From positions 1 to 46,399 of the forward strand of contig QPMI01000110.1 in assembly GCA_004431415.1 (NCBI GenBank): a DNA stretch of 46,399 bases, read 5' to 3'. Shown one piece after another: positions 7,892 to 39,558 of the stretch (its first letter is position 1; each line of letters opens with the position of its first letter). Position numbers and translations under genes: made by a program. Source of the stretch: Cyanophora paradoxa CCMP329. Taxonomy: Eukaryota; Plantae; Glaucophyta. The notes beneath the pieces were generated by a model. It made no database searches. It had not been told where the DNA came from and was given only the letters and a program-made list of their open reading frames with translations.

Positions 7892-9260
7892 ATGGCTTCC
7901 GCGCTCATCTCCACCCCCTCGACCGCCCTGCACCACTCGCTGCGCAGCTCCGACGCGTCGGTGCACGTGCACGAGACCTTCGACACGGCGATGCCGTTCG
8001 TGGACGAGGTGCTCGAGGTGAGCCCCGTGCAGTCGGGCGTGAGCTTCAGCCAGACCGTCGACATCGTCATCCCGCACTCGGCGCCGATGTTCAACGACTC
8101 CTGGCTCAAGGTGACGCTGCCGGCGCTGACGAACGCGGACCACTTCTACATCCCGAAGGCCGGCTACGTGCTGCTCAAGAAGGTGAAGATCTTCGTGGGC
8201 GCGCAGCTGATCCACGAGTACGACGGCCATTACGACGCCATCTACGGCGAGTTCGAGGACGACAAGTCCGTCGTCCAGCACGTCGACATGGTGAACAACC
8301 TCTGGGCGCACCAGCCGCTGCGCCGCCGGGGCAAGGCCCCGAACACGCTGTACATACCGATTCGCATCGCGACGGGCCACGGTCGAAAGTTCGCCGTGCC
8401 GCTCCACAAGCTCCGCTGCTCCGGAAACGACATGAAGCTGCAGATCACGTACGCCTCGCAGAAGGAGGTGACGGCCTCCTTCGTGGACGGCGGCCTGCAC
8501 ACCAACACCAACCTGACGAGCACCGTCAGCCTGGACACCAAGCTCATCCTGCGCTACGTGCACATCGACTCGCGCGAGCTGGCGCTGCACCCGAACTCGT
8601 TCACGTGGGCCGGCAAGTACGTGCAGCACTACCACGTCTCGTTCGAGTCCGGCAAGGCCATCCGCCTGCCCTTCACCGGAATCTGCTACGAGCTGATCAT
8701 CGTGGTGCGCGACAAGCCGCACACCGACAACGGCGAGCACTTCTGGCGCTTCCGCCCGCTCGACAAGATCGAGCTGAAGTGCGACAACATCAAGGTGCTC
8801 GATAGCTCGAACCACGACGCGCACTTCTTGCGCACGGCCATCGCGCACAAGGAGCACACGCACGCCCCGCCCGCAAGCACCTCGAGCTGCTGCGGGCGTG
8901 ACCTCGATGGACGGGACGGCGGCGGCCGACGTGGCCGACGCGCTGCACCCGCACCCGTGGTCGGGCAACGACACGGCCCCCACGACCCTCGCGACCCACG
9001 ACGGGCACAGCAGCGACATCCAGCCCCGCAACGTGGGCCAGTTCGGGACGGAGTTCATCTACTCGCTCCCCTTCGGCACGGACGTGGCCGACAACACCAA
9101 GATGTTCGGCGGCCTCGACATGGGCGCCTTCAAGACCATCGAGCTCACGCTCACCACGCTCAAGACCTACGGCGCGGACAAGCCCGTGGCCGACATCTAC
9201 TGCCGCTACTACAACGAGATCACCTTCACCAACGGCGGCGCCTACCGCCGCTTCCATTAG
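7892..9260 (+). CDS. Major capsid protein (double jelly-roll, NCLDV-like), one frameshift near 8880-8900
   Basis: Beta-rich ~455 aa. Contains WLKVTLPAL, GYVLLKKVKIFVGAQLIHEYDG, LYIPI, LPFTGICYELIIVVR, FIYSLPFG, GGLDMG and YYNEITFTNGG, matching the NCLDV MCP layout. Confidence 0.88.
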
Positions 9261-13555: not shown

Positions 13556-13680
13556 AGGAGGGGGGGGGGAGAAGTGACGCGGACGCGAAAGATTCCGTCA
13601 TGGGTTTTTCCGTCATGGGCTGGAACTTGGACCTGGGACTCGGGCCCAAACTCTCCCGGTAAAAAAATAGATTCGAACTT
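13556..13680 (+). repeat. Repeat copy A (TTCCGTCATGGG x2 + GGACTCG heptamers), outer left arm
   Basis: Direct repeat of ~14460-14526 and reverse complement of ~17657-17773. Confidence 0.9.
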
Positions 13681-13711: not shown

Positions 13712-14377
13712 ATGGAGCCCGCCATCTCCCAGCTGGTCTCCCAGGGCGCCAAGCTCGACAAGGCCCTCAACATCTACCTTCAGCTGATCGAGCTGGCATG
13801 GCCCGAGCCAATGATTGCCCAGGCCTGCAAATCGCTCCACGTGGCGTTCGATGCGCCGTTCTCAGGTGACCCGGATCAGATGACATCCTGGTCCAAGGAG
13901 GAGATAAAGGCAGACTTTGAGGCGCTTTTCTCATTTATGAGCAAGAAGTATGCCGAAATCGAAGCAGCCAAGGATGCCGAAGCCCAAGGCGGTGAAGATG
14001 CAGAAGCCCCAGAAGCCCCAGCCCAAGGCCCTGCCGGCGACCAAGGCACCGAAGTTCAAGGCGCTGGGCCCCTGCAGAGGGCGAAGGCCAAGGCGGACCT
14101 GCGACCGCGTAGGCCCAAGGACATAGCCAAGGAGGCAAGCGGCCACAGGCCGGACTGGCCGGCGCCGGCGCCCTACCGCTACCTCAAGCTGGACAAGAGC
14201 AACGATACCGGCTTCACCAGGAGGAGGTGGCCTGAGCCTCTCAGGTGGCTGGAGCCAAGGGAGATCAAGGCCGGAGGCAGTATCGAGCTAGCGCTAGCGC
14301 TGGGAGGCGGTGGTGGTGCAGACTTGGAGGAGCAGGCCTTGCTAGATACCATCAACTTGGGCAAGGTAGAGCTGTGA
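13712..14377 (+). CDS. Hypothetical protein lying between repeat copies A and B
   Basis: MEPAISQLV... ORF preceded by CCATTTTCTGA. Confidence 0.55.
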   Translation: MEPAISQLVSQGAKLDKALNIYLQLIELAWPEPMIAQACKSLHVAFDAPFSGDPDQMTSWSKEEIKADFEALFSFMSKKYAEIEAAKDAEAQGGEDAEAPEAPAQGPAGDQGTEVQGAGPLQRAKAKADLRPRRPKDIAKEASGHRPDWPAPAPYRYLKLDKSNDTGFTRRRWPEPLRWLEPREIKAGGSIELALALGGGGGADLEEQALLDTINLGKVEL

Positions 14378-14526
14378 TATCTAGCTAGTGCTTGCTAGCG
14401 CTTGCTTAATTAATTAACCTGAAGTTACCTGACATTTACCTGAAAGGTTGCGGAGGTTGCGGACGCGTCACAATTCCGTCATGGGTTTTCCGTCATGGGC
14501 TGGAACTTGGACTCGGGACTCGGCCG
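14376..14526 (+). repeat. Repeat copy B, inner left arm
   Basis: Reverse complement of 17431-17560 (GATATC...TTAATTAA...CCGTCATGGG...CGGCCG). Confidence 0.9.
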
Positions 14527-14754
14527 CAAAACTCGGCGTAAAAAAATACACGTGTTTTTGTCAAGTCTAACGTACCGACTCTGTACCCCTCTATTCGACT
14601 TGAAGGTAATTTCAAGTTGCTATGACATCATACTGAAGTTGCTATGACATTATCGTTATTCACAATCAATGAATACTTTAATGTAGTATAGAACGGTCAT
14701 AGGAGGGGTACGTCGTTCTTGTTCAAGTCTCGAACTTACCAGGAGAATTCCCGG

Positions 14755-15097
14755 TGCGCTGAGCGGGATGCGCTAAGCAGTTGGCTAGGCCCAGAGGCGC
14801 CCCAAGCAGAGAGGGACAGGCCCGTACGGCACCGTAGGGCGGCGGCAAGCGGGTGCCATTACGTACACAGCAGGCGCAGAGCCAGCGTAAGACAGAGAGA
14901 ACAAGAGAACAAGGACGTCGACAGACAGCAAGCGAGCGCCGCGCAGGGCAAGCGAGGGCCCAGGGCTAAAATAAGCGGGCCAGTTGGCAACAACGTGGCA
15001 CCAGGAATAGCAGGCTACAAAGGGTACAAGGCAAGGCAAGCTGCCGGCTTAGAGCCGACGACCAGGGCTAGCTGGGAGTCGGAAAGTGGGCGGCACA
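14755..15097 (-). repeat. LTR (3' LTR in inferred orientation)
   Basis: 343 bp, two visible substitutions relative to 17087-17429. Confidence 0.92.
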
Positions 15098-17086
15098 CGC
15101 TTCCCGCTACAAAAAGCCGTCCTCGGCGCTACGAGCTAAAGGCTGAACTAAAGCTGCGTAGGCGAGGCTGAACGGACTACGAGCCAAAAGCCGGCTACCG
15201 TCCCTGCACAGAAAGCCGTCCTCGGCGCCACAGCGGGCGGGCCAGAGGGGCAAATTAAAATCCATCAGGCCGTCGGCACCAGTATGAGGAACTGGGCCCA
15301 ACAAGGGAAGTTGGGTGAGGGACCCACGACCTGACGCCAGAGCGCGCGGAGCGCCGCCAGCCAACCGGGGGCAAACCCTCTAAATCCCGCCGGAGGGGAA
15401 AACGAGTGCTAGCGCTAGCACTAAGCTCGAATTCGAAACCGGCGCCGCGCCGCAAGCCGCCGGGCTGCGGCGGCGCCGGGTCGAAAGTTCCACAGTGTAG
15501 AAGGTACTTGACGTAGAATGTAGGAGTGTAGGACCGCAGGCTCGATCAGCAGAGCCGCAGCGGCAGAGTACGCGTTGCGGGCCAAGCTCGGCGCAGCTTG
15601 CCGCATTGCGTTGCCAAGTGACTCGGCCAGCGGAGTCACGAGGCGGGGCGATCGGACAGCACAGTAGCGTGTGCAGCCGCGTAAGCGTAGAGCAGGCAAG
15701 CCATGAAGAGTAGAGGCGGCGGGCCAGTCGCACGGGGTCAGGCTCCACAGCAGCGGCAGGCCACTGGTTGCATCATACAGACCCATCGCCAAGGATCCTC
15801 CACGATCGGACGGGATGGCAAACCACGGATACAGCCATCGAGTCCGCCGGTGTACGCAGATGCAGTGCGTAGCCGGGGCTTAGGCAGGCCACCATCGCGG
15901 GACAGGAGACAGCATCAGCGCGGCCCGGAATGATCATCGGTGCTCGCGTGATAGTCGTAGGCAAGAAGACTGGTCGCGGGGCATCACCCAGTGCTGCTTG
16001 CTGACGCTCCTCAACAGACAGGTCCGCTGTCCGCCGTCCAACTTTAGCTATGGCTGCTCACGTCGTCGTAGGACGTCCCAGAGCGCATCCTGTACGCTTC
16101 TGTTGACCTTCGCCCGCCGGACAGGCCTCGGTCAGACCTCCGCCCGCTGAACAGGCCTCGGTCGCTGATCAAACGCCCACGACAGGAAAGAACGACAGTC
16201 CGCACACGCTGGAGATGTGCGTGAAGCGACTGACATCTGGCTTGACGAGCTGGACGTCCCGGAGAAGGGCAGCTACGTCGTCGGAGCCAGGGCAAGGTCT
16301 TGGCATCTTGTCTGCCTTCTCGGTGCGACAGCGCGCACGGTAGAATTGACAACAGATAGATGCGCTTCCTCGCATAGAGATCGCTGTCAAGTGGAGCTGC
16401 GCCGGCTTCCACTGACGCGTACGCAACCCGCAGAGCCGAGAGAGACGCGGAGCCGCACGTCCTCTGGATGCAGGGTGGAGTCAAGTGGAGTGATCCTCAC
16501 GAGGGATGCCACTCGCCGCCGCTGAGCGTGCCTCGGACGGTCCGCAGGCGCCACTGCAGCCGTCGTAGGTGAGACCTCGGGCGCGTACTGGGGCCTTGTT
16601 ATCCCAGGGGCTTTCACGTCGCAGCGGTTTGACTCCATGCGTTCTTCAGATACACTCGCCACCATTGCAATACATTTAGTAGTACGCTGTGGTGTCGTCT
16701 CTCGATACAATACAATACAGTTTCATTCGACATGCGCGCGGGCTGCATCAGCATCTGTTCTTGAGCGCAGCCACGGCACGTTTAGATGACTGTGAGCGCA
16801 TGCGGCTCAATAGACGGGTTGGCGGACGCTTCCCACTACCGAAAGAGTGGTGCGCCGGGGCCGTAAGCAAGAAAAGGCGCGCGCAGTGGCGGGTAGAAAG
16901 GCATGAACCATGCGGTTCGTATTGCTAAGCTCTGCCGCATAGGCGCTTCCCACTACAAGAGAGTGGAGGCCGTACGCGCAAGCCGAGGCAAACGATGGCG
17001 TGCTTGTCCAGGGGTTCGGGCAAGAGCGCAGCGTTCGTCCCCAGGCATACGAGCTAAAAAGTCGAAGCCCAACGCAGCAGCCCCCA

Positions 17087-17429
17087 TGCGCTGGGCGGGA
17101 TGCGCTAAGCAGTTGGCTAGGCCCAGAGGCGCCCCAAGCAGAGAGGGACAGGCCCGTACGGCACCGTAGGGCGGCGGCAAGCGGGTGCCATTACGTACAC
17201 GGCAGGCGCAGAGCCAGCGTAAGACAGAGAGAACAAGAGAACAAGGACGTCGACAGACAGCAAGCGAGCGCCGCGCAGGGCAAGCGAGGGCCCAGGGCTA
17301 AAATAAGCGGGCCAGTTGGCAACAACGTGGCACCAGGAATAGCAGGCTACAAAGGGTACAAGGCAAGGCAAGCTGCCGGCTTAGAGCCGACGACCAGGGC
17401 TAGCTGGGAGTCGGAAAGTGGGCGGCACA
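17087..17429 (-). repeat. LTR (5' LTR in inferred orientation)
   Basis: Followed on the minus strand by TGGGGGCTGCTG, which is PBS-like. Confidence 0.92.
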
Positions 17430-17430
17430 C

Positions 17431-17560
17431 CGGCCGAGTCCCGAGTCCAAGTTCCAGCCCATGACGGAAAACCCATGACGGAATTGTGACGCGTCCGCAA
17501 CCTCCGCAACCTTTCAGGTAATTAATTAAGCAAGCGCTAGCGCTAGCTAGCTAGATATCG
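17431..17560 (-). repeat. Repeat copy C, inner right arm (its other part, 14721-14754, is separated by the LTR element)
   Basis: Inverted copy of B. 14721-14754 plus 17434 onward reconstitutes the sequence seen intact at 17657-17740. Confidence 0.9.
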
Positions 17561-17656
17561 ATACCACCTACTTAGTACTACTTAGTACTACTAGGACACT
17601 AGGACACTAGGACTCTGGGACACTAGGGCATTTGGACATAGGGGGTACCCCGCCGA

Positions 17657-17773
17657 GTTCAAGTCTCGAACTTACCAGGAGAATTCCCGGCCGAGTCCCG
17701 AGTCCAAGTTCCAGCCCATGACGGAAAACCCATGACGGAATCTTTTGCGTCCGCGTCATTTCTCCCCCCTCCT
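17657..17773 (-). repeat. Repeat copy D, outer right arm
   Basis: Inverted copy of A, including GCGTCCGCGTCA.TTCTCCCCCC. Confidence 0.9.
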
Positions 17774-17825
17774 ACGTTCGCAATCTCCGGACGCCTCCCA
17801 CAATTTTCCAAGGTACCCAGCAAGC

Positions 17826-20381: not shown

Positions 20382-21700
20382 TCAGTGGTGCAGGTGCCGG
20401 AAGCGCGCGTTGTCCTCGGCCTCCTCGCGCGCCGCCTGCTCCTCCGCCGCGTCGATCTTTGCCCGCGAGGCCTCGCGCGCCGCCCGCCTTGCGTACGAGG
20501 TGGGCACCGGCGCCCGCCGGTAGCTGTAGCCGAGGCCCTTCGCCAGCTCCACGGTCCCGTCCTCGAACGCCCGCCAGCTCTCCACGGCCTCCGCCGCGCT
20601 CATCCGCTCCGCGCGGAAGCCCGCCTCCAGCTCGGCGCGGAAGGCGGTGGCCTCCTGCAGGCGCTGGGCCCAGAGGCCCTGGCGCCGCGCCTCCGCCTCG
20701 CGCGCCTGGCGCGCCGCCAGCGCCCGCCGCTCGGCCCCCTGCTGGGCCCCGAAGCCCATGATCGCGCTGAGGATGGCGCCGGGGCCGGGGATGAACGCGT
20801 CCGGGTCGGGAGCGGCGGCGAAGGCGGCGGGGACGGGGCTGCGGTCGGCGAGGGAGAAGGGGACGGGGCTGGGGCCGGCGCCGTCGGAGGGGGCCGAGCT
20901 CCCGTAGCCGCTCGGGCCCGCGCCGCCGTTCGCCGGGGTACCCTGCCCTTGGATCAGGAGGGGGGCGAGGGGAGGGGGGGTACAGGGAAGGCGGGGGGTA
21001 CGCGGGGCCGGACCTGGCGCGGCAGCATCTCGTCGATGCGCTGCTGGCCGGCGTGCTGCTGGCCGGCGTGCTGCTGGCCGTGCGAGGAGGAGGGCGGCGG
21101 GGGCGGGACGAAGGCGGGGGCCGAGTTGCGGGTGCGCTTGCCCCTGCCGCGGATCGAGGCCTTGACGGGGAAGGGGCCGTTCTCCGGGTCCGCCGGCTCG
21201 AAGAACTGGATGGCCTGCAGCGCCGGCTGGCTCTCGCCGAGGGAGAGGGGGCCTTGGGGACGATGCCGCGGATGTAGGTCTGCCAGATGCCGCCGGCCCT
21301 GTAGGAGAAGAGGCGGCACCTGGGGCCGAAGGCGGCGATGGTCTCGTCCAGCTCGCCGTTCTCGACGTCGGCGGCGACGGCGGCGGCGGCGTCCGGGCCC
21401 TCCGTGCGCGAGATGTACTCGCAGATGCCCGCCACGCTCGTCATGCCGCCCTCCGTCTCCGAGCCGACGAGGTAGGTGGTGGGGTCGACGACGCAGTGGG
21501 TGATGACGAAGCGGGTGAGGGTGCAGGAGGCCGTCTCCTGCCAGAAGGCGAGGCGCTTCGCCCGCAGCCACACCGGCTCGAAGGACTGGATGCAGGAGGC
21601 CTGGCGGCCACCTGCGGCGCGGGCGACGTTAGCGCGTACGACGTCGGGACGGGCGGGAAGGTGCGCGGCTTCGAATCCAGCGGCTCCCCGCGAAGCTGCC
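20382..21700 (-). CDS. Hypothetical protein: globular N-part, Pro-rich middle, coiled-coil C-terminus (multiple frameshifts, start undefined)
   Basis: Coherent segments in ORFs 20083..21573, 20954..21571 and 20382..20759. Confidence 0.45.
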
Positions 21701-22753
21701 TGCGGCCCAGTGAGCGTGCTGCGAGCGGGAGGTGGGAGGGATTGGGCGGGCGGGCCTGCGTCCAGCGCTGAAACGTAGCTCCACTGATGCTATCCGCGAT
21801 GCGCGTAGCCCGCGACTGGCTGCGGACAAGGGAGGGCTTAGCTAGGACAAGAACGGGTGTGGGGCGCGGGCTGGAGGCGCGGGGAGGCGAGCCGGAGCCG
21901 CCGAATCGATGCGCGGGCTTGAGAACGAGATCTAGAAGCGTGCGCAAGTCGCCGCGAACGTCGGCTCGAGTTGCGGAAGGCGCGGCGGCCAATCTCGGCA
22001 CCTGCTCAGAGACCAAATGTCAGCGGACGCGGGCGAATCGAGCGCGAGGTTGCGGGACATGTTCTAGGTGCTAAATGCAAGGATAGAGCGGCAAGAGAGC
22101 GAGCTGGCACCTGCGGGATGCGGCGGAGTGCTCCGGCTCGGGCGCCATCGAGCTTTCGAAGGTCCGCGGCCGGCGCGAGCGACCCTGCGCGTGGCGGCGT
22201 GAGTGCGGCGTCGAGAGAGCTTTCCAGCGCCCAAAATCTGAGGTCCGGAGCTAGCCGTGGTGCGGAGAAAGAGGTTGCGAAGTGAGGCGCACCTCCGAAT
22301 CGAAAGGAGCGAGGCGGCGGCTCTCCGGGCTGAGCGGAATGCAAGCTAGTGCCTCTGGCAAGTGCTGCAAGGAGCGCTGGGCCCGGGCGCTGCGAGATGC
22401 GCTGCCCGGGCGCTTTTTTTCGGGTTGGGGTACTGTGTTTTGAGTCGAAACACGTGGAGCAACCGCGTGAGCCCAAAACTTTCTGAGCTTAGGAGCAAAG
22501 GCGGTCGAGCGCTCGGCCGCGCAAGCTAGCTCCGGCGCGCTCTGCCTTCTCTCTACACGTGTCGCATTCGCGTGCGCTCAAAACTTTCTAAGCTTCGGTC
22601 AAGCAAGGGGCTAGCGCTTCCGAAGTTCTACGCGCGCGCCTCCCCGTCCGCCGGGCCGACGGTCTGCGCGTCACATCGTCCGCTGCGCCAAGAAGGAGAG
22701 ATCAAGACGGTGTCAACCGGGTCTAGTTGAGCGCTTAAGGTCGGACCAAAGCC

Positions 22754-22803
22754 TGTCCCGACCCTCCCAGATCTTTAAATTAATATCTCAGAAGGTCGAG
22801 ACA
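22754..22803 (+). repeat. 50-bp palindrome with AT-rich centre (duplicate copy)
   Basis: TGTCCCGACCCTCCCAGAT-CTTTAAATTAAT-ATCTCAGAAGGTCGAGACA. Confidence 0.9.
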
Positions 22804-22893
22804 GCAGTCCAGACGTCGACTATAGCTAGCCAACAGACGTCGACTAGCCTAGTAGATCTAGAATTTTCCAAGCCTAGCTATAGAGAGACGACC

Positions 22894-24052
22894 ATGGCAA
22901 CCGGACGCGTGTCTCTCGACGTCGACGCCTTCCTGGCCCGTATGCCCGGGCCCGGGTACAGCAGATAGATCTGAGCGAGCAGGAGTGCAGCTTTTTCGTT
23001 CGATTCCCTCTCGTCGAAGTCCAGAAGGCCTGCAGCCCGACCCTGGGACGGCTTTCTGCGTCTTCCACCCGCCCTGCATCACCCCAGCCACTTCTCGGGT
23101 GCCGAGGATGAGACGAGCACTGCGGCAGCCTGCGCCTTTGCAACCAAGTTCGGAGGCTTCACTTTCTCTCGCCCCTTGGATAATGGATTCAAGGCTGCCT
23201 ACGTCCTACAGAGCCCGGAGGCTTGCGATCTCATGGCATGGTTCTTTGGGAGCTCGAGCGGCCTGGAGCTCGGTGTGGATGGCACCGGGGGCTACGTTCT
23301 GCGGGGGCCGGCGCCCGGGCCGCGAGCGGAGCTCCTCCCCACTCCATCCAGAAGCTCGGCGCCCCGCGCTAAGCCCATCCCGGAGCCGGGCGCTCTCCTG
23401 GATTCGAGCCCAAGCCTGCCGGCCTTGGAGCGGCTCCTGGACCGCCTACGCAAGAACAAGGCGGTGAGGGACGAGATCTGGAAGGCGGGGGCAGAGCTGC
23501 GCGCGGACCTTGGCCTGCACGACGCCCGCCGCGTTCAGCACCTTGGAGTCGAGCCCGACGGGTCCATCACCCTCGTCCTGGGCGGGAGTCAGCCGGGGGC
23601 GCCGGCGGCTCGAATCTCCATCCAGGCGCACGGTATTGAAGTCGAGCTCGAGGGGGAGGGGACCGGAGGGGAGTCGGGCAGCGTGGCACAGACCCGCTAT
23701 GTGACCGATCCCTCGCAGCCTGTCGCCTTCGACATTGCCCTCCCCTCCCTCCTGATCGCGCTCGAGTCGACGGGCCTGGAGGCTTGCGTCAATGCAGTGG
23801 ATGAACGCCACCTCTCGTGCAAGATCCTTACCTCCGCATTCGGGGCGCTGGAGCAGAACCCGAGATCCGCTCAGCCGCAGGTCGACGTCATCTGCTCGGG
23901 ACTCAACACGGGGAAGACGCAGGCGCTGATCGATGCGTACCTGGACCCGGCCCTTGCAGGCGGCTGGCGAGTGATCCTCGTGACTTGCCGCCGGGCCTTC
24001 TCCCGCGACCTCAAGCGTCGCATTGATGCTGCGGAGTTGTCAAAGGACGCCG
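22894..24052 (+). pseudogene. 5'-only duplicate of the helicase gene, truncated after motif Ia
   Basis: Same as 25373 onward up to ELSKDA, then runs into duplicated upstream sequence. Confidence 0.8.
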
Positions 24053-25232
24053 GCTCGAAGGACTGGATGCAGGAGGCCTGGCGGCCACCTGCGGCGCGGG
24101 CGACGTTAGCGCGTACGACGTCGGGACGGGCGGGGAAGGTGCGCGGCTTCGAATCCAGCGGCTCCCCGCGAAGCTGCCTGCGGCCCAGTGAGCGTGCTGC
24201 GAGCGGGAGGTGGGAGGGATTGGGCGGGCGGGCCTGCGTCCAGCGCTGAAACGTAGCTCCACTGATGCTATCCGCGATGCGCGTAGCCCGCGACTGGCTG
24301 CGGACAAGGGAGGGCTTAGCTAGGACAAGAACGGGTGTGGGGCGCGGGGCTGGAGGCGCGGGGAGGCGAGCCGGAGCCGCCGAATCGATGCGCGGGCTTG
24401 AGAACGAGATCTAGAAGCGTGCGCAAGTCGCCGCGAACGTCGGCTCGAGTTGCGGAAGGCGCGGCGGCCAATCTCGGCACCTGCTCAGAGACCAAATGTC
24501 AGCGGACGCGGGCGAATCGAGCGCGAGGTTGCGGGACATGTTCTAGGTGCTAAATGCAAGGGATAGAGCGGCAAGAGAGCGAGCTGGCACCTGCGGGATG
24601 CGGCGGAGTGCTCCGGCTCGGGCGCCATCGAGCTTTCGAAGGTCCGCGGCCGGCGCGAGCGACCCTGCGCGTGGCGGCGTGAGTGCGGCGTCGAGAGAGC
24701 TTTCCAGCGCCCAAAATCTGAGGTCCGGAGCTAGCCGTGGTGCGGAGAAAGAGGTTGCGAAGTGAGGCGCACCTCCGAATCGAAAGGAGCGAGGCGGCGG
24801 CTCTCCGGGCTGAGCGGAATGCAAGCTAGTGCCTCTGGCAAGTGCTGCAAGGAGCGCTGGGCCCGGGCGCTGCGAGATGCGCTGCCCGGGCGCTTTTTTT
24901 CGGGTTGGGGTACTGTGTTTTGAGTCGAAACACGTGGAGCAACCGCGTGAGCCCAAACTTTCTGAGCTTAGGAGCAAAGGCGGTCGAGCGCTCGGCCGCG
25001 CAAGCTAGCTCCGGCGCGCTCTGCCTTCTCTCTACACGTGTCGCATTCGCGTGCGCTCAAAACTTTCTAAGCTTCGGTCAAGCAAGGGGCTAGCGCTTCC
25101 GAAGTTCTACGCGCGCGCCTCCCCGTCCGCCGGGCCGACGGTCTGCGCGTCACATCGTCCGCTGCGCCAAGAAGGAGAGATCAAGACGGTGTCAACCGGG
25201 TCTAGTTGAGCGCTTAAGGTCGGACCAAAGCC

Positions 25233-25282
25233 TGTCCCGACCCTCCCAGATCTTTAAATTAATATCTCAGAAGGTCGAGACA
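25233..25282 (+). repeat. 50-bp palindrome upstream of the helicase gene
   Basis: Same element, 90 bp before the ATG. Confidence 0.9.
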
Positions 25283-25372
25283 GCAGTCCAGACGTCGACT
25301 ATAGCTAGCCAACAGACGTCGACTAGCCTAGTAGATCTAGAATTTTCCAAGCCTAGCTATAGAGAGACGACC

Positions 25373-28300
25373 ATGGCAACCGGACGCGTGTCTCTCGACG
25401 TCGACGCCTTCCTGGCCCGTATGCCCGGGCCCGGGGTACAGCAGATAGATCTGAGCGAGCAGGAGTGCAGCTTTTTCGTTCGATTCCCTCTCGTCGAAGT
25501 CCAGAAGGCCTGCAGCCCGACCCTGGGGACGGCTTTCTGCGTCTTCCACCCGCCCTGCATCACCCCAGCCACTTCTCGGGTGCCGAGGATGAGACGAGCA
25601 CTGCGGCAGCCTGCGCCTTTGCAACCAAGTTCGGAGGCTTCACTTTCTCTCGCCCCTTGGATAATGGATTCAAGGCTGCCTACGTCCTACAGAGCCCGGA
25701 GGCTTGCGATCTCATGGCATGGTTCTTTGGGAGCTCGAGCGGCCTGGAGCTCGGTGTGGATGGCACCGGGGCTACGTTCTGCGGGGGCCGGCGCCCGGGC
25801 CGCGAGCGGAGCTCCTCCCCACTCCATCCAGAAGCTCGGCGCCCCGCGCTAAGCCCATCCCGGAGCCGGGCGCTCTCCTGGATTCGAGCCCAAGCCTGCC
25901 GGCCTTGGAGCGGCTCCTGGACCGCCTACGCAAGAACAAGGCGGTGAGGGACGAGATCTGGAAGGCGGGGGCAGAGCTGCGCGCGGACCTTGGCCTGCAC
26001 GACGCCCGCCGCGTTCAGCACCTTGGAGTCGAGCCCGACGGGTCCATCACCCTCGTCCTGGGCGGGAGTCAGCCGGGGCGCCGGCGGCTCGAATCTCCAT
26101 CCAGGCGCACGGTATTGAAGTCGAGCTCGAGGGGAGGGACCGGAGGGGAGTCGGGCAGCGTGGCACAGACCCGCTATGTGACCGATCCCTCGCAGCCTGT
26201 CGCCTTCGACATTGCCCTCCCCTCCCTCCTGATCGCGCTCGAGTCGACGGGCCTGGAGGCTTGCGTCAATGCAGTGGATGAACGCCACCTCTCGTGCAAG
26301 ATCCTTACCTCCGCATTCGGGCGCTGGAGCAGAACCCGAGATCCGCTCAGCCGCAGGTCGACGTCATCTGCTCGGGACTCAACACGGGGAAGACGCAGGC
26401 GCTGATCGATGCGTACCTGGACCCGGCCCTTGCAGGCGGCTGGCGAGTGATCCTCGTGACTTGCCGCCGGCCTTCTCCCGCGACCTCAAGCGTCGCATTG
26501 ATGCTGCGGAGTTGTCAAAGGACGCCGTGCTTTACATGGACATCAAGAAGCCACCGGAGAGCTCAAAGGGATCGCATGGCAAGTGGGGCTTCCGCCATGA
26601 GGAGTGCAGGTGCGTCGTCATCACATGGGACTCGCTGCACAAGGTGCTCGAGGACTGGGAGGGCTGGTCGACGGCGCCGCTACTGGTCGTGCTGGACGAG
26701 CTCTCCTCCCTCACGAAGCACCTCACCTCGAGCGGCACCCTCGAGCCCACCGGCCTGCACCTAGGTATGCGGTCAGTGCCTCGAAACGCGCGCTGCGTGG
26801 GCCTATGGCGCGGCGTGATGAAGGCATCGCGCATCGTGGCGATGGACGGCTTCGTTCGGTCGGTCGATCTCGCGTACCTGGCAGAGTCGGCGCAGGAGGT
26901 CGGGGCGCGCCTGGGGCTCCTGTACAACTCGCATCGCACCTGCGACTGGAAGATGCGCGTGTCAGACAGCCCGGCGCACGTCGAGGCGGACATCATGGCG
27001 CTGTGCAGACCGGGGCGCTGCCGGGCGATGATCATTGCAGAGACGCCGGCCAAGGCGATCGAGATGCAGGAGAAGATTGCGAAGCAGGCGCTGGAGCAGC
27101 TCAGCCTGGGCGGCGCTCAGTACGTGACTCAGCTCGAGGCAGGGCCCGAGGACGGCAGCGGCGCACCGTTCACGATCGGGCTCATCGTTGGGCAGGCCAA
27201 GGAGAAGAGCGTGCGCTTCACGAACGACGGCCCAGTGCGCATCGTGTCGATCGATGTGTCTGAGGAGGGCGCGTACAAGGCCTGCGACGTGCTCATCGCA
27301 ACTTCCGCGCTCGGGGCAGGCGTGGACTTTTCGGACGCGCACTTTGACAAGGTCTACGGCGTGTTCCAGGCAGAGCCCGCGCAGCTGGAGGCGGACGACA
27401 TCGTGCAGCTGCTGTTTCGAGTCAGAAGGCTGCGCAAACGCAGCACGCCCGACGGAGAGCACCTGCTCGTCGCCGTGCGCAAGAACCGGACGCCCTCGGT
27501 TGCGGTCGGCGCGGCGGCTGCGCACTGGCGTGAGAGCGACGACGACGAGAGCTCGGACGACATGCAGCGCTACCTGGACCTGAAGGCTAGCCACCGCGGG
27601 AGCCGCCGCGCCGGCATGCCCACTCGGCGCCTCGCAGTGGCAGCGCGCCTGCGGCTGATGTCGACCTGCGCGCTGATGAACGTGCAAGTCACGGAGGATC
27701 AAAACCGAGCGGACCGAAGCAGGAGAAGGAGCAGCGGCTGCGCGAGATCAGGAGCGTGCTGGAGGCGGGCGCGCTGGAGCCCGTCGATCTGTGGAGCACG
27801 GTGCTGGCCTGGAGGCAGTCCCGCGAGTCTCTCGCTAAGCTGGACATCGAGAAGGTTGCTTCGCTTGCTCGCACGTCGATCGCCGCGTTCCTGGCCAAGG
27901 ATCCGAGCGAGCTGACCGAAGGAGACGTCGCCTGGATGTGGGATTCGTTCTACTCCATCCCGCTCACTGCCGTGGTCACGCTGGTGCTGAAGCATGGCGC
28001 GGACGTTGCCGAGATCGTGCCTACTGCTGAGCGCCTCAAGGTATCGAAGGTCGTCGCGCTGTTCAAGAAACTCTTCGGCTGGCGGGGTATGGAAAGCTCG
28101 CGGGGCGTGCTCTGTGGTCGGACGAAGCCTACGCGGCCCTGGCGTCGCCGGAGGGTCGGGAGGCGTACGCGGCTCTGCAGAGTCTGGACGAGCGCGCGCC
28201 CCGCTTCGATGCAGCGGACGGTGAGAAGAAGCGGCTCTCGCAGCAGTCTTGGCAAGTCATCAAGTACCTGCTGGAGAAGTACCTCGGAGTGAGACGCGCT

Positions 28301-28586: not shown

Positions 28587-28636
28587 TGTCTCGACCTTTT
28601 GAGATATTAATTTAAAGATCTGGGAGGGTCGGGACA
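28587..28636 (-). repeat. 50-bp palindrome downstream of the helicase gene, inverted orientation
   Basis: Reverse complement matches 25233-25282 with one mismatch. Confidence 0.9.
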
Positions 28637-28920
28637 TTGCGAGGGCGGACGAGAGTGAGGGCATGCACTCTCTATGTGTCCCGACCTTTTCTGAACAACT
28701 CATGATTGCCGTATCATCGATCTGCATTTACTCACTTCGTTCTCTGTCGCTTGCACATGCGCGGTGTGGGATTACTAATTAGATCTAGTCTCCCTAGCCC
28801 TCTGCGGCCGCCTTCCTGCCCCCCTGCAAAGAGCAGCTCAACCAAATCCTGTGGGGTCTGATTCATTGCAGACTCGCCTTCCCCGCCTGGGCCTGAGCTA
28901 CACCAAGCTACGGTGAGTCC

Positions 28921-29268
28921 GACCAAGAGACGTGTCCGGACCCTCCCTACTTTCTTTATAGATTATTGGAAAGGTCCGGACACTAGAGGAGGGAGGGCGT
29001 ACATAAGTAGTCTGACCAAGAGACGTGTCCCGACCCTCCCAGATCTTTAAATTAATATCTGAGAGGGTCGAGACACTAGAGGAGGGCGTACATAAGTAGT
29101 CTGACCAAGAGACGTGTCCCGACCCTCCAGATCTTTAAATTAATATCTGAGAGGGTCGAGACACTAGAGGAGGGCGTACATAAGTAGTCTGACCAAGAGA
29201 CGTGTCCCGACCCTCCCAGATCTTTAAATTAATATCTGAGAGGGTCGGGACACTAGAGGAGGGCGTAC
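28921..29268 (+). repeat. Tandem array of four ~89-bp units, each carrying the 50-bp palindrome
   Basis: Palindromes at 28933-28982 (divergent), 29026-29075, 29115-29163 and 29203-29252, with near-identical spacers. Confidence 0.93.
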
Positions 29269-35086: not shown

Positions 35087-35577
35087 GACCTTGGTGCTCG
35101 GACCTTGGGGCTTGGTGCTTGGGCTTGGGCTTGGTGCTTTGGAAGCGTTACTCTCAGAGTCTGGGTCCAGACTTTCTCTGGATCTGCGAGTTTGCCGCGC
35201 CAAGTCATTAACCATCGGGCAGACTTAGAAAGGGGTACTGCATTTTGCATACGACGTTTCCGGTGACATTCCAGGTGAGATTTCGAGAGAGGTAGAGTCT
35301 GAAATGTCGACAGAGTTTTCGAGAGCGATTTCAAGCGAGATGTCAAGAGACAGAGGGTACGAGAAGTCGTAAGAGTAAAAAAGACTACGAGTAAAAAAGA
35401 GTATGAGGGGTGGTACGACTAAAAAAGACTACGAGTAAAAAAAGTCCGTAGAAAAACTCACCTGACTTGTCTGACAAATTTCTGATCCTGGAGAAAGTCT
35501 GGGCCGGGACCCTGAGAGAAACGCTTCCAAAGCACCAAGCACCAAGCACCAAGGTCCGAGCACCAAGGTCCAAGGTC
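35087..35577. repeat. ~95-bp inverted repeats (35087-35186 / 35484-35577) around a ~300-bp spacer with direct repeats
   Basis: GACCTTGGTGCTCGGACCTTGG..TTGGAAGCGTT.CTCTCAG and its reverse complement. AAAAAAGACTACGAGTAAAAAA occurs twice in the spacer. Confidence 0.88.
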
Positions 35578-35973: not shown

Positions 35974-37439
35974 TGGTGTGAATCTTAGTGTCGTACTCGC
36001 GACCGATCGTGGCCCAGGATACGTAGTTTGTAGACGTGCCGTTTGCAGGGTTGGTGGTGGCAGTCGTGTAGTCGGCCTCTGCTTCTATCAACTCGGCCAT
36101 GAGGGTAGAACCCACGACCATTCCAGAGGTAGGCATACCCGCAATGTTGTTGTACAATTTGAAAGTGAATTTCGTGAAGAGGAGCCGGGCCAGAGCTGGC
36201 ACGGGGATTCGAGGAATCATAGGAAAACGAGGTACCCGAGACTCCACCCGTGGTGGCATTCGTCATCATTTCCTTTGCGGTCATCTTCCAGAGATTGTAC
36301 ATCTCAAAGGGACGGCCTGCGTGGTCTTGTGAGTGGCATCGATGGCGGTGCCGTCTATGTGGGTCTTGGAGCCGCCGTTAAAGGTGCGAGTGAGGGCGGT
36401 GTTCGCAGTGAACTTGAGCTCGAGCACTCGGATTGCGGGCCGATCCGGCACGGAGGGCTCTATCTTTTTCAGGAGGCCAGAGAGCCAGAGGGCCTCCGCC
36501 TCGTCCGCGCTCACACCCGAGTCGATGTCAAAGTACACGTACACGGAGCAGGAGGCGGGATTCTCGAAATCGTTGGAGGTGACGCGCAGCATGATCGGAT
36601 TCTGGATCTTCACGGTCAGCATGGAGGCGTAGCTGCCGTCCCAGACCACGGAATCCGTCCCGGCGTTGGCCGCTGCGACATCGCCGTAGAAATCGGGGTG
36701 GGCAGCACGGTCTTCACGATGGTGCTCGAGGTGGAAGGCATTTTGCGACCTCGGATGAGAAAGATTATCCGTAGAAGAGGGCGATGTCGTTGCCGATGCC
36801 GAGAGGCGGGCCGCGGGCTGCACGGCGTCGGAGCCGGTGGTGTGCCTGTAGGAAATCGAGCACTCGCGCAGCTCCGCGCAGAGGCTGGCGCCCGTGCTGA
36901 AGTGGGCTGGTCGGCGGCGTAGGGCAGGGGAAGACCTGGAACTTGAAGAAGGTGAAGGGGAAGCGGGGTAGCCCGGAAGCGCGCGGGTTGCCGCCCGTGT
37001 AGAGGGCTCCCAGGGTGGCGGGACTCGGATTGAATTTCGTGAAGAGCACGTCGCCCTTGAGCGTACCCCGCGCAGTAAACGCACCCGTACCCGGCAGCGC
37101 GGTATCGGTGTACTGGTTCACGGTGGGGCCGTACCCCGTCTCCCTGAACTTAACCTCGAGACAGCGCAGGACGTTGGCCGTGGCCGTGGCGGGCGCCACC
37201 CTTTTCACGAGGCCGGATTCGTGGAGCAGCTCAATGACCTCTGCGCTGAGAGTGGACGGGTCGAAGAAGAGCTGGTAGGAGTAGATCTTGGGCGTGGCGT
37301 AGGCGTTCTGAACGGCTTGAATCACGACGGGATTCTGCAGGAAGACGTCGACGTAGCTGCCGGAGGGGATGCGCGCGAAGTTTGAGTTGTTGTTGCCGGC
37401 GTCGAGGGAGTTGAGAGTCTGGTACCAGTTGGAAGTCAT
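35963..37439 (-). CDS. Beta-rich probable structural protein (minor capsid candidate), frameshifted
   Basis: ORFs 36765..37439, 36281..37084 and 35963..36259 form a consecutive T/N/S/V-rich chain. Confidence 0.5.
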
Positions 37440-37477
37440 TTACCCGGGGCAGATATTTTTTCGGATCGTAGAGGAAA

Positions 37478-39558
37478 ATGCCCCGCTTTGTATTCGTGAA
37501 GAAACAGGTGGTGCAGGCTCCGCAGTACGGCGTGGAGCCGATCTCGCTCACTGTGGGCAGGCCCCAGGTGCGATCGGGCTCCGTGCTCAACAACGGGGCG
37601 GTACCTACGGATTTCGACTGAACTGGGGTGCTGTCACCAACGCCGTCAAGTACAAGGTGTACAGGGCGACGAGCCTCAATGGCACCTGGACGCTGGTGAA
37701 CACTGTGAACGCCCCCACGCTCACGTACACGGACACGCCCTTTAATTTTGGCGAGCTACGTCTCTACCGGGTGGCCGCGGTTCGCGAGCAGGGCAGCAGC
37801 AGCACGGGCTCCGATGGCAAAGCCCCACCCACAACCTACGCACAGTCGCTTCTCTACACGCACGAGGGCACTACAAGCAATTACATTCTCTTCCAAGGCC
37901 TGAGCGGCTTCAACCCTCAGATCGAGGCGTACACCACGCTCACAACCGCCACGGCCCAGACCTACGGCGATTTTATTGCCGGGGGCGGCCCCGCGTCTTC
38001 CGGCTTCCCGAAACCCGCCATCGTCGTCACAATCAATTGGGTGGCCATGGAGGGCGCGGACTCGATTCGAATTTACAGAGACGGCACCCCTATCGGATTC
38101 GCAAGCAGCGCCCTAGCTACCTCGTACATCGACGATAGCACTGCCCTTGCGTGGGGTACGGAGTACTCCTACCAGGTGGCCGGCATCGTGGGCGGGGTCG
38201 AATACGAAAAGTCCGATCCGCTCCCGGTCTGGACGACGCCGAACGCGCCCACGAACGTGACGACGACTGCGCCCGACGACATAGAGCAGCCCGTCAGCCT
38301 CAGCTGGACGGCGCCAACGGGGGCGACGGGGTACAAGATCTACAGGGACGGGGCCTACCTCGCAGACTCCGCGACCAACTCCTATAGCGACGCGACCACG
38401 ATCTGGGGTACGGGGTACGAGTACCAGGTCTCCGCGACGAACTCGGGAGGGGAGGGACCGAAGAGCATTGTGGCGTATGTCACCACGGATCCGGCGGCGC
38501 CCACGGAGCTCACCGCGACTCCGACGGCGGGGGCCGCCCAGCCAGTGGTGCTTGCCTGGTCGGCGCCGGCGACGGGCGTCACCGTCTCCTACAACATTTA
38601 CAGGGACGGCGTCTTTCTCGCGAACGACGTCAGCAGCCCTATTCGGACGCGACGACCGCGTTCGGGACGACCGCGTTCGGGACGACCTACACTTACACCG
38701 TCAAGGGCGTTAACCAGATTGGCGAGGAGGGCCTGCCTCCAGCAGTGCCTTTGCGACGACAATTGACAGTTTTATGGACAGCGCCACCATTTCAACGGCC
38801 ACCAAGAATGCACTGGTGGCCGCATACTCAACCCGAAGGGTTCGGCCCTCTTATGTCGGACCCACGCTCCGTCTGCGTCGCAGCGATGGAATTACCGCCG
38901 ATTGGTACGCTGACTATTCAGGCGTCTTGAATTCTGCGTACGATCGGTCTGGAACAAGTTACACGACTTGGGTGACGGGGTACACGGCAACTGTTCAGAC
39001 AATGTACGATCAGACGGGGGGTGGGAGGCACGCGACCCAGGATACAGCATCTTTGCAACCTCGCTATACGAGTGGCCGGGTGACATTCGATGTCGGCAGC
39101 TCCCATTATCTGCAAGTTCCCTACTCTGCAGCCCTCAATACCTCGACGTACTCGGTACTTTGCTCCTGCCTTTTCACCGCTACGACAACAGGAACTTATT
39201 GGACCCCTGTAGCATCCCGCGGCATGTTCACGGGCTACTCGTTGTACAGGAACAATGGCGTGTTTCTGTCCTACACGGGCAATGGCTCTGCGTGGACTGA
39301 TTTCGGAACGAGTGCAGCGAATGCAGGTACGCAGTATAAGATTGCCGTAGGGTACAATGGCACGACACACTCCATTCGCGTGGGCTCAACCGTAGAAACA
39401 AGGACAGCCGGCTACGCTCCAAACACGCAGTATCCCCTGCGCATTGGAGCGGGTGTCACCGAGTCATCCCCGCGCACCTCTGGAACGGCTGGGTCGACGA
39501 TGTGCTCTTCTTTAACACGTTTATTACGGACGCCAGTGCCGTTCACGCGCTCATGTAA
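37478..39558 (+). CDS. Surface/fibre protein: several FN3 repeats plus C-terminal LamG/concanavalin-like domain (frameshifted)
   Basis: LSWTAPTGATGYKIYRDG...YEYQVSATNSGGEG repeats, then AAYSTRRVRPSYVGPTLRLRR, then PLRIGAG...WNGWVDDVLFF. Confidence 0.8.

Follow-up and report, generated by a model that had tools for sequence, protein, structure and literature searches.

An intergenic repeat of an endogenous virus in the genome of Cyanophora paradoxa CCMP329 is interrupted by a sequence with long terminal repeats (LTRs) at both ends. This raises the question whether the virus captured the element and spreads it, or whether a host retrotransposon landed in one virus copy by chance. We addressed the question in a window of 46,399 nucleotides, the whole stretch of DNA analysed (contig QPMI01000110.1 of assembly GCA_004431415.1, positions 1–46,399), together with sequencing runs and the gene models of the host, Cyanophora paradoxa as named in the EukProt accession text. 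The answer we favour, with a probability of about 0.8, is a multi-copy host LTR family lacking recognisable gag and pol, one member of which inserted by chance into one integrated virus copy, likely using the enzymes of another element. Our verdict is a new family of non-autonomous LTR elements, of which one copy became nested, by chance, in a single provirus copy.

The element has two complete LTRs and exact boundaries

Two direct repeats of 343 bp (14755–15097 and 17087–17429), each with TG...CA ends, enclose an interior of 1989 bp (15098–17086), giving an element of 2675 bp. These LTRs are 99.4% identical and differ by two substitutions, both A/G (14762/17094 and 14869/17201), as the preliminary description had stated. 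One contig of run X15 consists of exactly the 343 bp of 14755–15097, at a depth of 326. The element is flanked by a 4-bp target-site duplication, CCGG, at 14751–14754 and 17430–17433 (p ~0.005 for a chance 4-bp flank match), which is also borne out by the empty path among the contigs of the DNA runs, described below. When the element and one CCGG are taken out, the flanks are identical on both sides to viral repeat copy D (17657–17772, minus strand), an uninterrupted paralogue of the target. The identity extends over 34 bp on the left (14721–14754 = 17657–17690) and 55 bp on the right (17430–17484 = 17687–17741). Because copy D is identical to both flanks, the element boundaries are exact; the duplication and uninterrupted site proposed earlier match base for base, and no ORF is interrupted, in agreement with the claim that the insertion breaks no gene.

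The orientation of the element is suggested by the signals at the LTR borders. On the minus strand, TGG, a triplet with a frequency of 2.3% among interior positions, is found at +1 after the LTR. The interior ends on this strand in a 13-mer (15098–15110) with 10 purines, which is in the top 1.8% of interior 13-mers. The purine tract before the 3' LTR is therefore present, though short and imperfect. At the LTR borders of the plus strand there is neither a TGG at +1 nor a purine tract. In the inferred retro-sense, the minus strand, 17087–17429 would be the 5' LTR, followed directly by a primer-binding-site-like 8-mer that starts with TGG (17079–17086), and 14755–15097 would be the 3' LTR, abutted by the polypurine-tract-like 13-mer. 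The earlier proposal of primer-site and purine-rich signals on this strand is consistent with these counts; the resemblance of the 8-mer to a tRNA-Pro primer site is a putative likeness over 8 nt. Sequences closely similar to the purine tract recur twice, at 16827–16839 and 16944–16956, towards the end of the interior that bears the primer-like site.

The surrounding DNA resembles a mriyavirus

A scan of 46 window ORFs gave matches to Capsid_N, Pox_A32, Pox_A22, a TFIIB zinc ribbon, YqaJ, DUF5767, Herpes_ori_bp and an fn3-domain protein, and none to a DNA polymerase among these ORFs, the window ends possibly cutting the viral genome. In a frameshifted stretch on the minus strand (60–870), an HxH motif like that of HUH endonucleases can be seen by eye; the mixed-frame ORF had no match in Pfam or in Atlas. 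The major capsid protein gene (7892–9257, plus strand, identified by its Capsid_N match) is frameshifted near 8860. All 13 capsid relatives found come from one EukProt proteome, that of Cyanophora paradoxa. Many of the paralogous host models are full length (456–457 aa), with 93–100% identity over the first 326 aa, and this abundance of near-identical full-length paralogues argues that the virus family is large and recent. Viral gene models form 39 clusters along the host gene set. By its gene set, the virus resembles a multi-copy endogenous mriyavirus-like element. Mriyaviruses measure 35–45 kb (PMC11253617), and endogenous Mriyaviricetes-related regions have been reported in a Glaucocystophyceae assembly (10.1101/2025.04.19.649669). 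The viral genes and repeats of Cyanophora paradoxa are described as methylated and mostly silent (PMC12344493).

The element lies in the third of four viral repeats: copy A (13561–13662, plus strand), copy B (14376–14526, plus strand), copy C (minus strand, inverted relative to copy B), whose left part at 14721–14754 resumes as the right part at 17434–17559, and copy D. Between 13561 and 17772 they are ordered A> B> <C <D with swapped arms, the outer arms being common to A/D and B/C and the inner arms to A/B and C/D. In three DNA runs a contig changes strand between 14386 and 17532. The arrangement could be an invertible segment or a genome-end junction. By depth, the path into copy D (17541–17690) amounts to ~18 copies in X2 and ~8 in X14, and the spacer before copy C to ~17 and ~15; the difference at copy D possibly means that virus copies or cultures differ in structure, or that the libraries are biased.

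Other features of the viral DNA were also observed. An array of 88–89 bp units with an AT-rich imperfect palindrome (28916–29268; dispersed copies at 28587–28636, 22754–22803 and 25233–25282) would be a better replication-origin candidate than repeats A–D. A tandem 2.48-kb duplication covers the helicase region (21570–26527), with 1 substitution and 13 indels between the copies; the indels are probably long-read errors on a recent or collapsed duplication. Nested inverted repeats of 36–50 bp, built of 7-nt units, surround a 310-bp core at 35087–35577. A viral ORF at 37369–38766 with fibronectin-III and RGI_lyase-like domains is a possible attachment protein.

The element belongs to a mobile host family

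The window region was found in 20 of the 24 listed runs, all 20 from one organism; the four runs from organisms B–D contained next to no words of it, which is no proof of absence. In the two DNA runs X14 and X2 the LTR end joins contigs with unrelated flanks, of 3278 bp (depth 17.6) and 950 bp (depth 11.1) in X14 and of 3283 bp (depth 56.1) and 2494 bp (depth 63.4) in X2. There are at least four such loose-ended flank contigs in X14 and at least three in X2, those listed matching by at least 31 letters. The visible flanks of these other copies do not end in CCGG, indicating that CCGG is not a fixed target. LTR starts correspond by depth to ~71 copies in X14 and ~78 in X2, and interiors to ~28 and ~37; these values are rough, since single-copy depth was estimated from few long contigs and contig depth is not a copy number. 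Element-derived host gene models form 13 clusters at 25 loci; these occupy 20 different contigs identified by name, and a further four loci were positioned by interpolation. These counts derive from gene models and run contigs, so that copies of the element without a model are missed. The 25 gene-model loci and the unrelated flank contigs speak for a family with copies at other flanks rather than a local duplication. We conclude that the element belongs to a genuine mobile host family; LTR elements as a whole make up 1.77% of the Cyanophora paradoxa genome (PMC6704402).

The members of the family are not uniform. At least two interior variants exist, differing by a few percent, mostly by transitions. 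Other copies carry at least 330 more bases at 15965/15966 (contig 5 of X1, loose ends in X14 and X15), where the window copy lacks them, and gene models P0015 and P0044 read this extra segment. At 16667/16668, other copies contain a second, diverged unit of 16542–16667 that is absent here, as seen from a joint 16667>16542 in X2, X14 and X1. A more distant relative, a 2785-bp contig, has in common with the window element the 3' region at 15150–15400 (minus strand), while its other 2.3 kb do not match the window element. Its depth, 110.8 in X2 and 34.7 in X14, corresponds to about two copies, and this low-copy relative is a candidate for the autonomous partner.

Could the window copy instead be a deletion derivative of an autonomous family, whose full-length members hold gag-pol at the 16667/16668 gap, before the antisense gene described below? 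The window copy does lack two segments that other copies possess, in the minus sense the gap is placed where gag-pol would begin, and other elements, such as Retand and Grande, do have antisense genes located between pol and the 3' LTR (PMC7264820). Against this, the 67 and 40–90 nt seen at the two edges of the gap appear to resemble a short diverged repeat of the neighbouring intron–exon unit, and the element-derived models contain no Pfam domain and none exceeds 201 aa (within length limits of 80–2000 and 42–259 aa). We consider an autonomous family very unlikely, and favour a family that has no recognisable gag or pol.

The interior lacks gag and pol

The longest ATG ORFs of the interior encode 121 aa on the minus strand and 76 aa on the plus strand. 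Among 24 frame segments, none matched a gag or pol Pfam family at E<=1, and the one weak Pfam match was to Vwaint (E 0.11). A motif scan found only GPY, twice, both within the LTRs. The ~2-kb interior therefore has no recognisable gag or pol, as first described.

We then compared the element with known classes of non-autonomous elements. ARAGORN detected no tRNA in the element and no Rfam family matched at E<=1. Retrozymes carry a hammerhead ribozyme within the LTR; here a single hammerhead core-like word was found, in the interior and not in the LTR. Helenus, Ajax and Cassandra are LTR elements with tRNA- or 5S-derived sequence (PMC10886601). An LTR derived from a tRNA, 5S RNA or ribozyme, as in these elements or in retrozymes, is ruled out by the ARAGORN and Rfam results. 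TRIMs have a total length of up to 1–1.5 kb and LARDs exceed 4 kb (PMC13570524). At 2675 bp, the window copy is excluded from both by length, the other copies being longer than a TRIM as well. Ngaro and DIRS elements, defined by split direct repeats and a tyrosine recombinase (PMC8547959), are excluded by the two complete LTRs and the target duplication. The element is thus a non-autonomous LTR retrotransposon of a size between TRIM and LARD, and its LTRs, its target duplication, the lack of gag and pol and the copies at other flanks uphold the initial view of a non-autonomous LTR retroelement inside a viral repeat. Animal Helenus elements linked to Gypsy have a 4-bp duplication and those linked to Copia one of 5 bp (PMC10886601). 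By this analogy, the 4-bp duplication leans toward a Gypsy-type integrase, and is the sole pointer to a dependence on Gypsy.

The target site is empty in nearly all virus copies

The depth entering the target, summed over the copy C and copy D sides, is 415 in X14 and 2147 in X2, and the depth leaving by the empty path is 387 and 2033, respectively, or 93–95%. Depth is flat over 14724–14747, and at 14751 only the empty path continues. No contig of X14 or X2 crosses the filled junction, and none starts within 14725–14751 except the empty path. The spacer before the site represents ~15–17 close virus copies by depth, and on one contig the models of the two viral genes that flank the site, g830 and g829, directly follow each other. 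The filled insertion is seen in the window sequence alone; contigs drop rare links. Given the depth deficit of 1.6–1.9 single-copy units, one or two filled copies could be hidden, and many filled copies are excluded.

That no contig crosses the filled junction would also be expected if a repeat had been misjoined into viral sequence or duplicated locally, and the window does contain errors of the long-read type, such as the excess of indels in the 2.48-kb duplication and the capsid frameshift. A misjoin, however, would not produce two LTRs of full length with an exact 4-bp duplication around them, nor flanks that join up as an empty site without a single base of difference, and a local duplication is excluded by the presence of the family at many other flanks. 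We regard an artefact as most improbable, and take the insertion to be real and confined to very few virus copies.

To assess target preference, we counted element loci near viral genes. Of the 24 other element loci, 1 has one of the 74 viral models at a distance of 10 gene models or fewer (0.96 expected), and 3 have one at 40 or fewer (3.0 expected). This test is coarse because it uses gene-model numbers; four element loci were interpolated, and g770 was left out as possibly the window's own locus. When just four other loci were known, two of them had a viral gene no more than 40 models away (p 0.04), which gave an impression of virus targeting; with 24 loci it was gone. A second element copy, g17365, is four models from the capsid gene model g17369, whose capsid is 98% identical over the first 326 aa, and is probably inside another virus copy. 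Its interior reads as a different variant (P0018 as against P0014), and it is most simply a separate insertion.

These data bear on the proposal that the element was captured once and then copied or moved by the virus as a vector. The ~15–17 close virus copies and the 39 viral clusters indicate a mobile virus family, a second element copy adjoins a capsid gene, the insertion leaves all ORFs intact, the depth deficit permits one or two filled copies, and there is a precedent in Gypsy-4_cRei within a punuivirus (10.1101/2024.09.03.611062). On the other side, the empty path takes nearly all of the depth with a filled-junction contig in neither run, the second copy is a different variant, the family is not enriched near viral genes, and the viral flanks lack depth in the probable RNA run. 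In addition, neither the IMG/VR viral contigs nor the JGI metagenome contigs contain an exact match to a 23-nt word of the LTR. The depth of the window-type interior at first seemed to track virus copy number (857 versus 1047 in X2; 245 versus 272 in X14), as if it travelled with the virus, a reading that was rejected on account of the empty path. We therefore find hitch-hiking very unlikely; with the site empty in nearly all virus copies and no enrichment near viral genes, the role of horizontal-transfer vector suggested at first is not supported. The more elaborate scenario in which a reactivatable mriyavirus-like provirus twice captured a host element that has a spliced antisense gene of its own, and takes this element along in its particles from cell to cell or from one species to another, is no more credible. 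Chance insertion of a host element remains the preferred reading. The other suggestion made at first, that the insertion disables replication, supposes that the viral repeat is a replication signal; it is speculative, and any such effect could concern no more than one copy.

The insertion is likely recent

A G at LTR position 8, one of the two differences between the LTRs, accounts for about a fifth of the depth (265/1246 in X14 and 894/4656 in X2) and is also seen at other outer LTR junctions. It is a family variant, so that the 0.6% LTR divergence is only an upper bound on change after insertion. Dating by LTR divergence was dropped for this reason, at least one of the two differences being a common family variant. 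The insertion is likely recent, as the word "young" had implied, although the two LTR differences are no reliable measure of its age.

The family apparently makes a spliced antisense RNA

Run X15, which we guess to be RNA (no run containing the region is on record as such), has a depth of 200–1500 across the interior and none over the viral flanks at 14421–14662 and 17446–17808. It contains two joints with zero depth in three DNA runs and two loose ends, which together fit four GT-AG introns on the plus strand, opposite to the retro-sense. Intron A (16022–16071, 50 nt) corresponds to a loose end at 16070 and to a gene-model exon break at 16021/16072. Intron B (16131–16185, 55 nt) corresponds to a joint of depth 159. 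Intron C (16323–16433, 111 nt) corresponds to a joint 16316>16432 of depth 143, its boundaries being inferred from that joint in a variant copy. Intron D (16569–16649, 81 nt) corresponds to a loose end at 16568 that resumes at 16650. Host gene models share some exon breaks with these introns, and all gene-model matches to the window that passed the filter are on plus frames. On the evidence of one run, X15, the family apparently makes a spliced antisense RNA. The preliminary description of the element as non-coding thus stands as far as gag and pol are concerned, and missed a multi-intron antisense transcript.

Models of different element copies read the exons in different frames. The antisense peptide gave seven matches, six host models and one weak match to a 4900-aa repetitive protein; there was no convincing relative outside the host among 1.84 billion representatives, and no usable match in Atlas. 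The differing frames, together with the lack of relatives outside the host, make a conserved protein doubtful. Most likely, the transcript acts as an RNA or through a short accessory peptide.

A model for the insertion and its implications

We propose that an RNA of the minus strand, running from LTR to LTR, would use a host tRNA, presumably tRNA-Pro, as primer at the TGG site. An autonomous partner would then copy and integrate it in trans; to judge from the 4-bp duplication this partner is probably Gypsy-like, and the low-copy relative that has only the 3' end in common is a candidate. One product would have landed in an already integrated virus, in intergenic repeat C of a single provirus copy. 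A second RNA, spliced, would be made from the opposite strand; as it is antisense to the primer-site orientation, its introns would persist in each DNA copy. We expect the insertion to be neutral, or else to disable this provirus copy and no other.

The analysis defines a glaucophyte family of non-autonomous LTR elements that is apparently both transcribed and recently active. Its peptides explain 25 or more gene models, which probably do not represent host genes of the ordinary kind. As a filled/empty marker, the site orders two events, the spread of the provirus and then the insertion. The four-intron antisense RNA may be viewed as a natural counterpart of the intron-marked retrotransposition reporter, and the family offers a test of the roles of antisense transcripts in LTR elements. 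Should the virus prove able to reactivate while bearing the insertion, it would provide a compact model of virus-mediated transposon transfer; if particle carriage were true, the smallest of the viruses related to giant viruses would have a retroelement as cargo.

Comparison with known systems

Intermediate-length non-autonomous LTR elements (PMC13570524) resemble the element in having two LTRs, a primer-site-like signal, a purine tract and a target-site duplication, and also in lacking coding domains, in their internal duplications and in often being partnerless: 61 of 115 beet non-autonomous families are reported there to have no traceable partner. Relative to that description, the element differs in its glaucophyte host, its 4-bp duplication and its four-intron antisense transcript.

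The virus is like Mriyaviricetes, as characterised in PMC11253617, in its capsid, A32 ATPase, A22 resolvase, nuclease, UL9-like helicase and HxH motif, with no polymerase match; it is placed by gene set, its capsid relatives being found only in the host's own gene set. A literature search returned no paper on a retrotransposon inserted in a mriyavirus, and the supplements of the survey of endogenous regions (10.1101/2025.04.19.649669) may list such loci. Retroelement nesting in endogenous viruses of protists is already known. Gypsy-4_cRei is likewise a multi-site host LTR family with one copy inside an endogenous Nucleocytoviricota genome, the Chlamydomonas punuivirus (10.1101/2024.09.03.611062). 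As reported there, it encodes Gag, makes 5-bp duplications and resides in a 617-kb virus shown to make particles, whereas the element here lacks gag and pol and its virus is small and multi-copy. Ngaro elements in the endogenous virophages of Cafeteria are also retroelements within a multi-copy endogenous DNA virus of a protist (PMC8547959). They have a tyrosine recombinase and split repeats, and type 1 prefers viral DNA (91%; PMC8547959); the element here, in contrast, has true LTRs and no viral preference (1/24), and serves as a counter-example to virus-targeted nesting of the Ngaro kind.

Of the findings, it is the spliced antisense RNA that deserves further study. LTR elements with ORFs or non-coding RNAs in antisense are known, and a review of such transcripts asks for a search for spliced ones (PMC7264820). 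Retand, Grande, RIRE2 and micropia, as presented in that review, similarly have an opposite-strand transcript in the 3' interior with no protein homologue (PMC7264820). Those elements carry gag-pol, whereas the family described here combines an interior without gag or pol with an antisense transcript from which four introns are apparently spliced.
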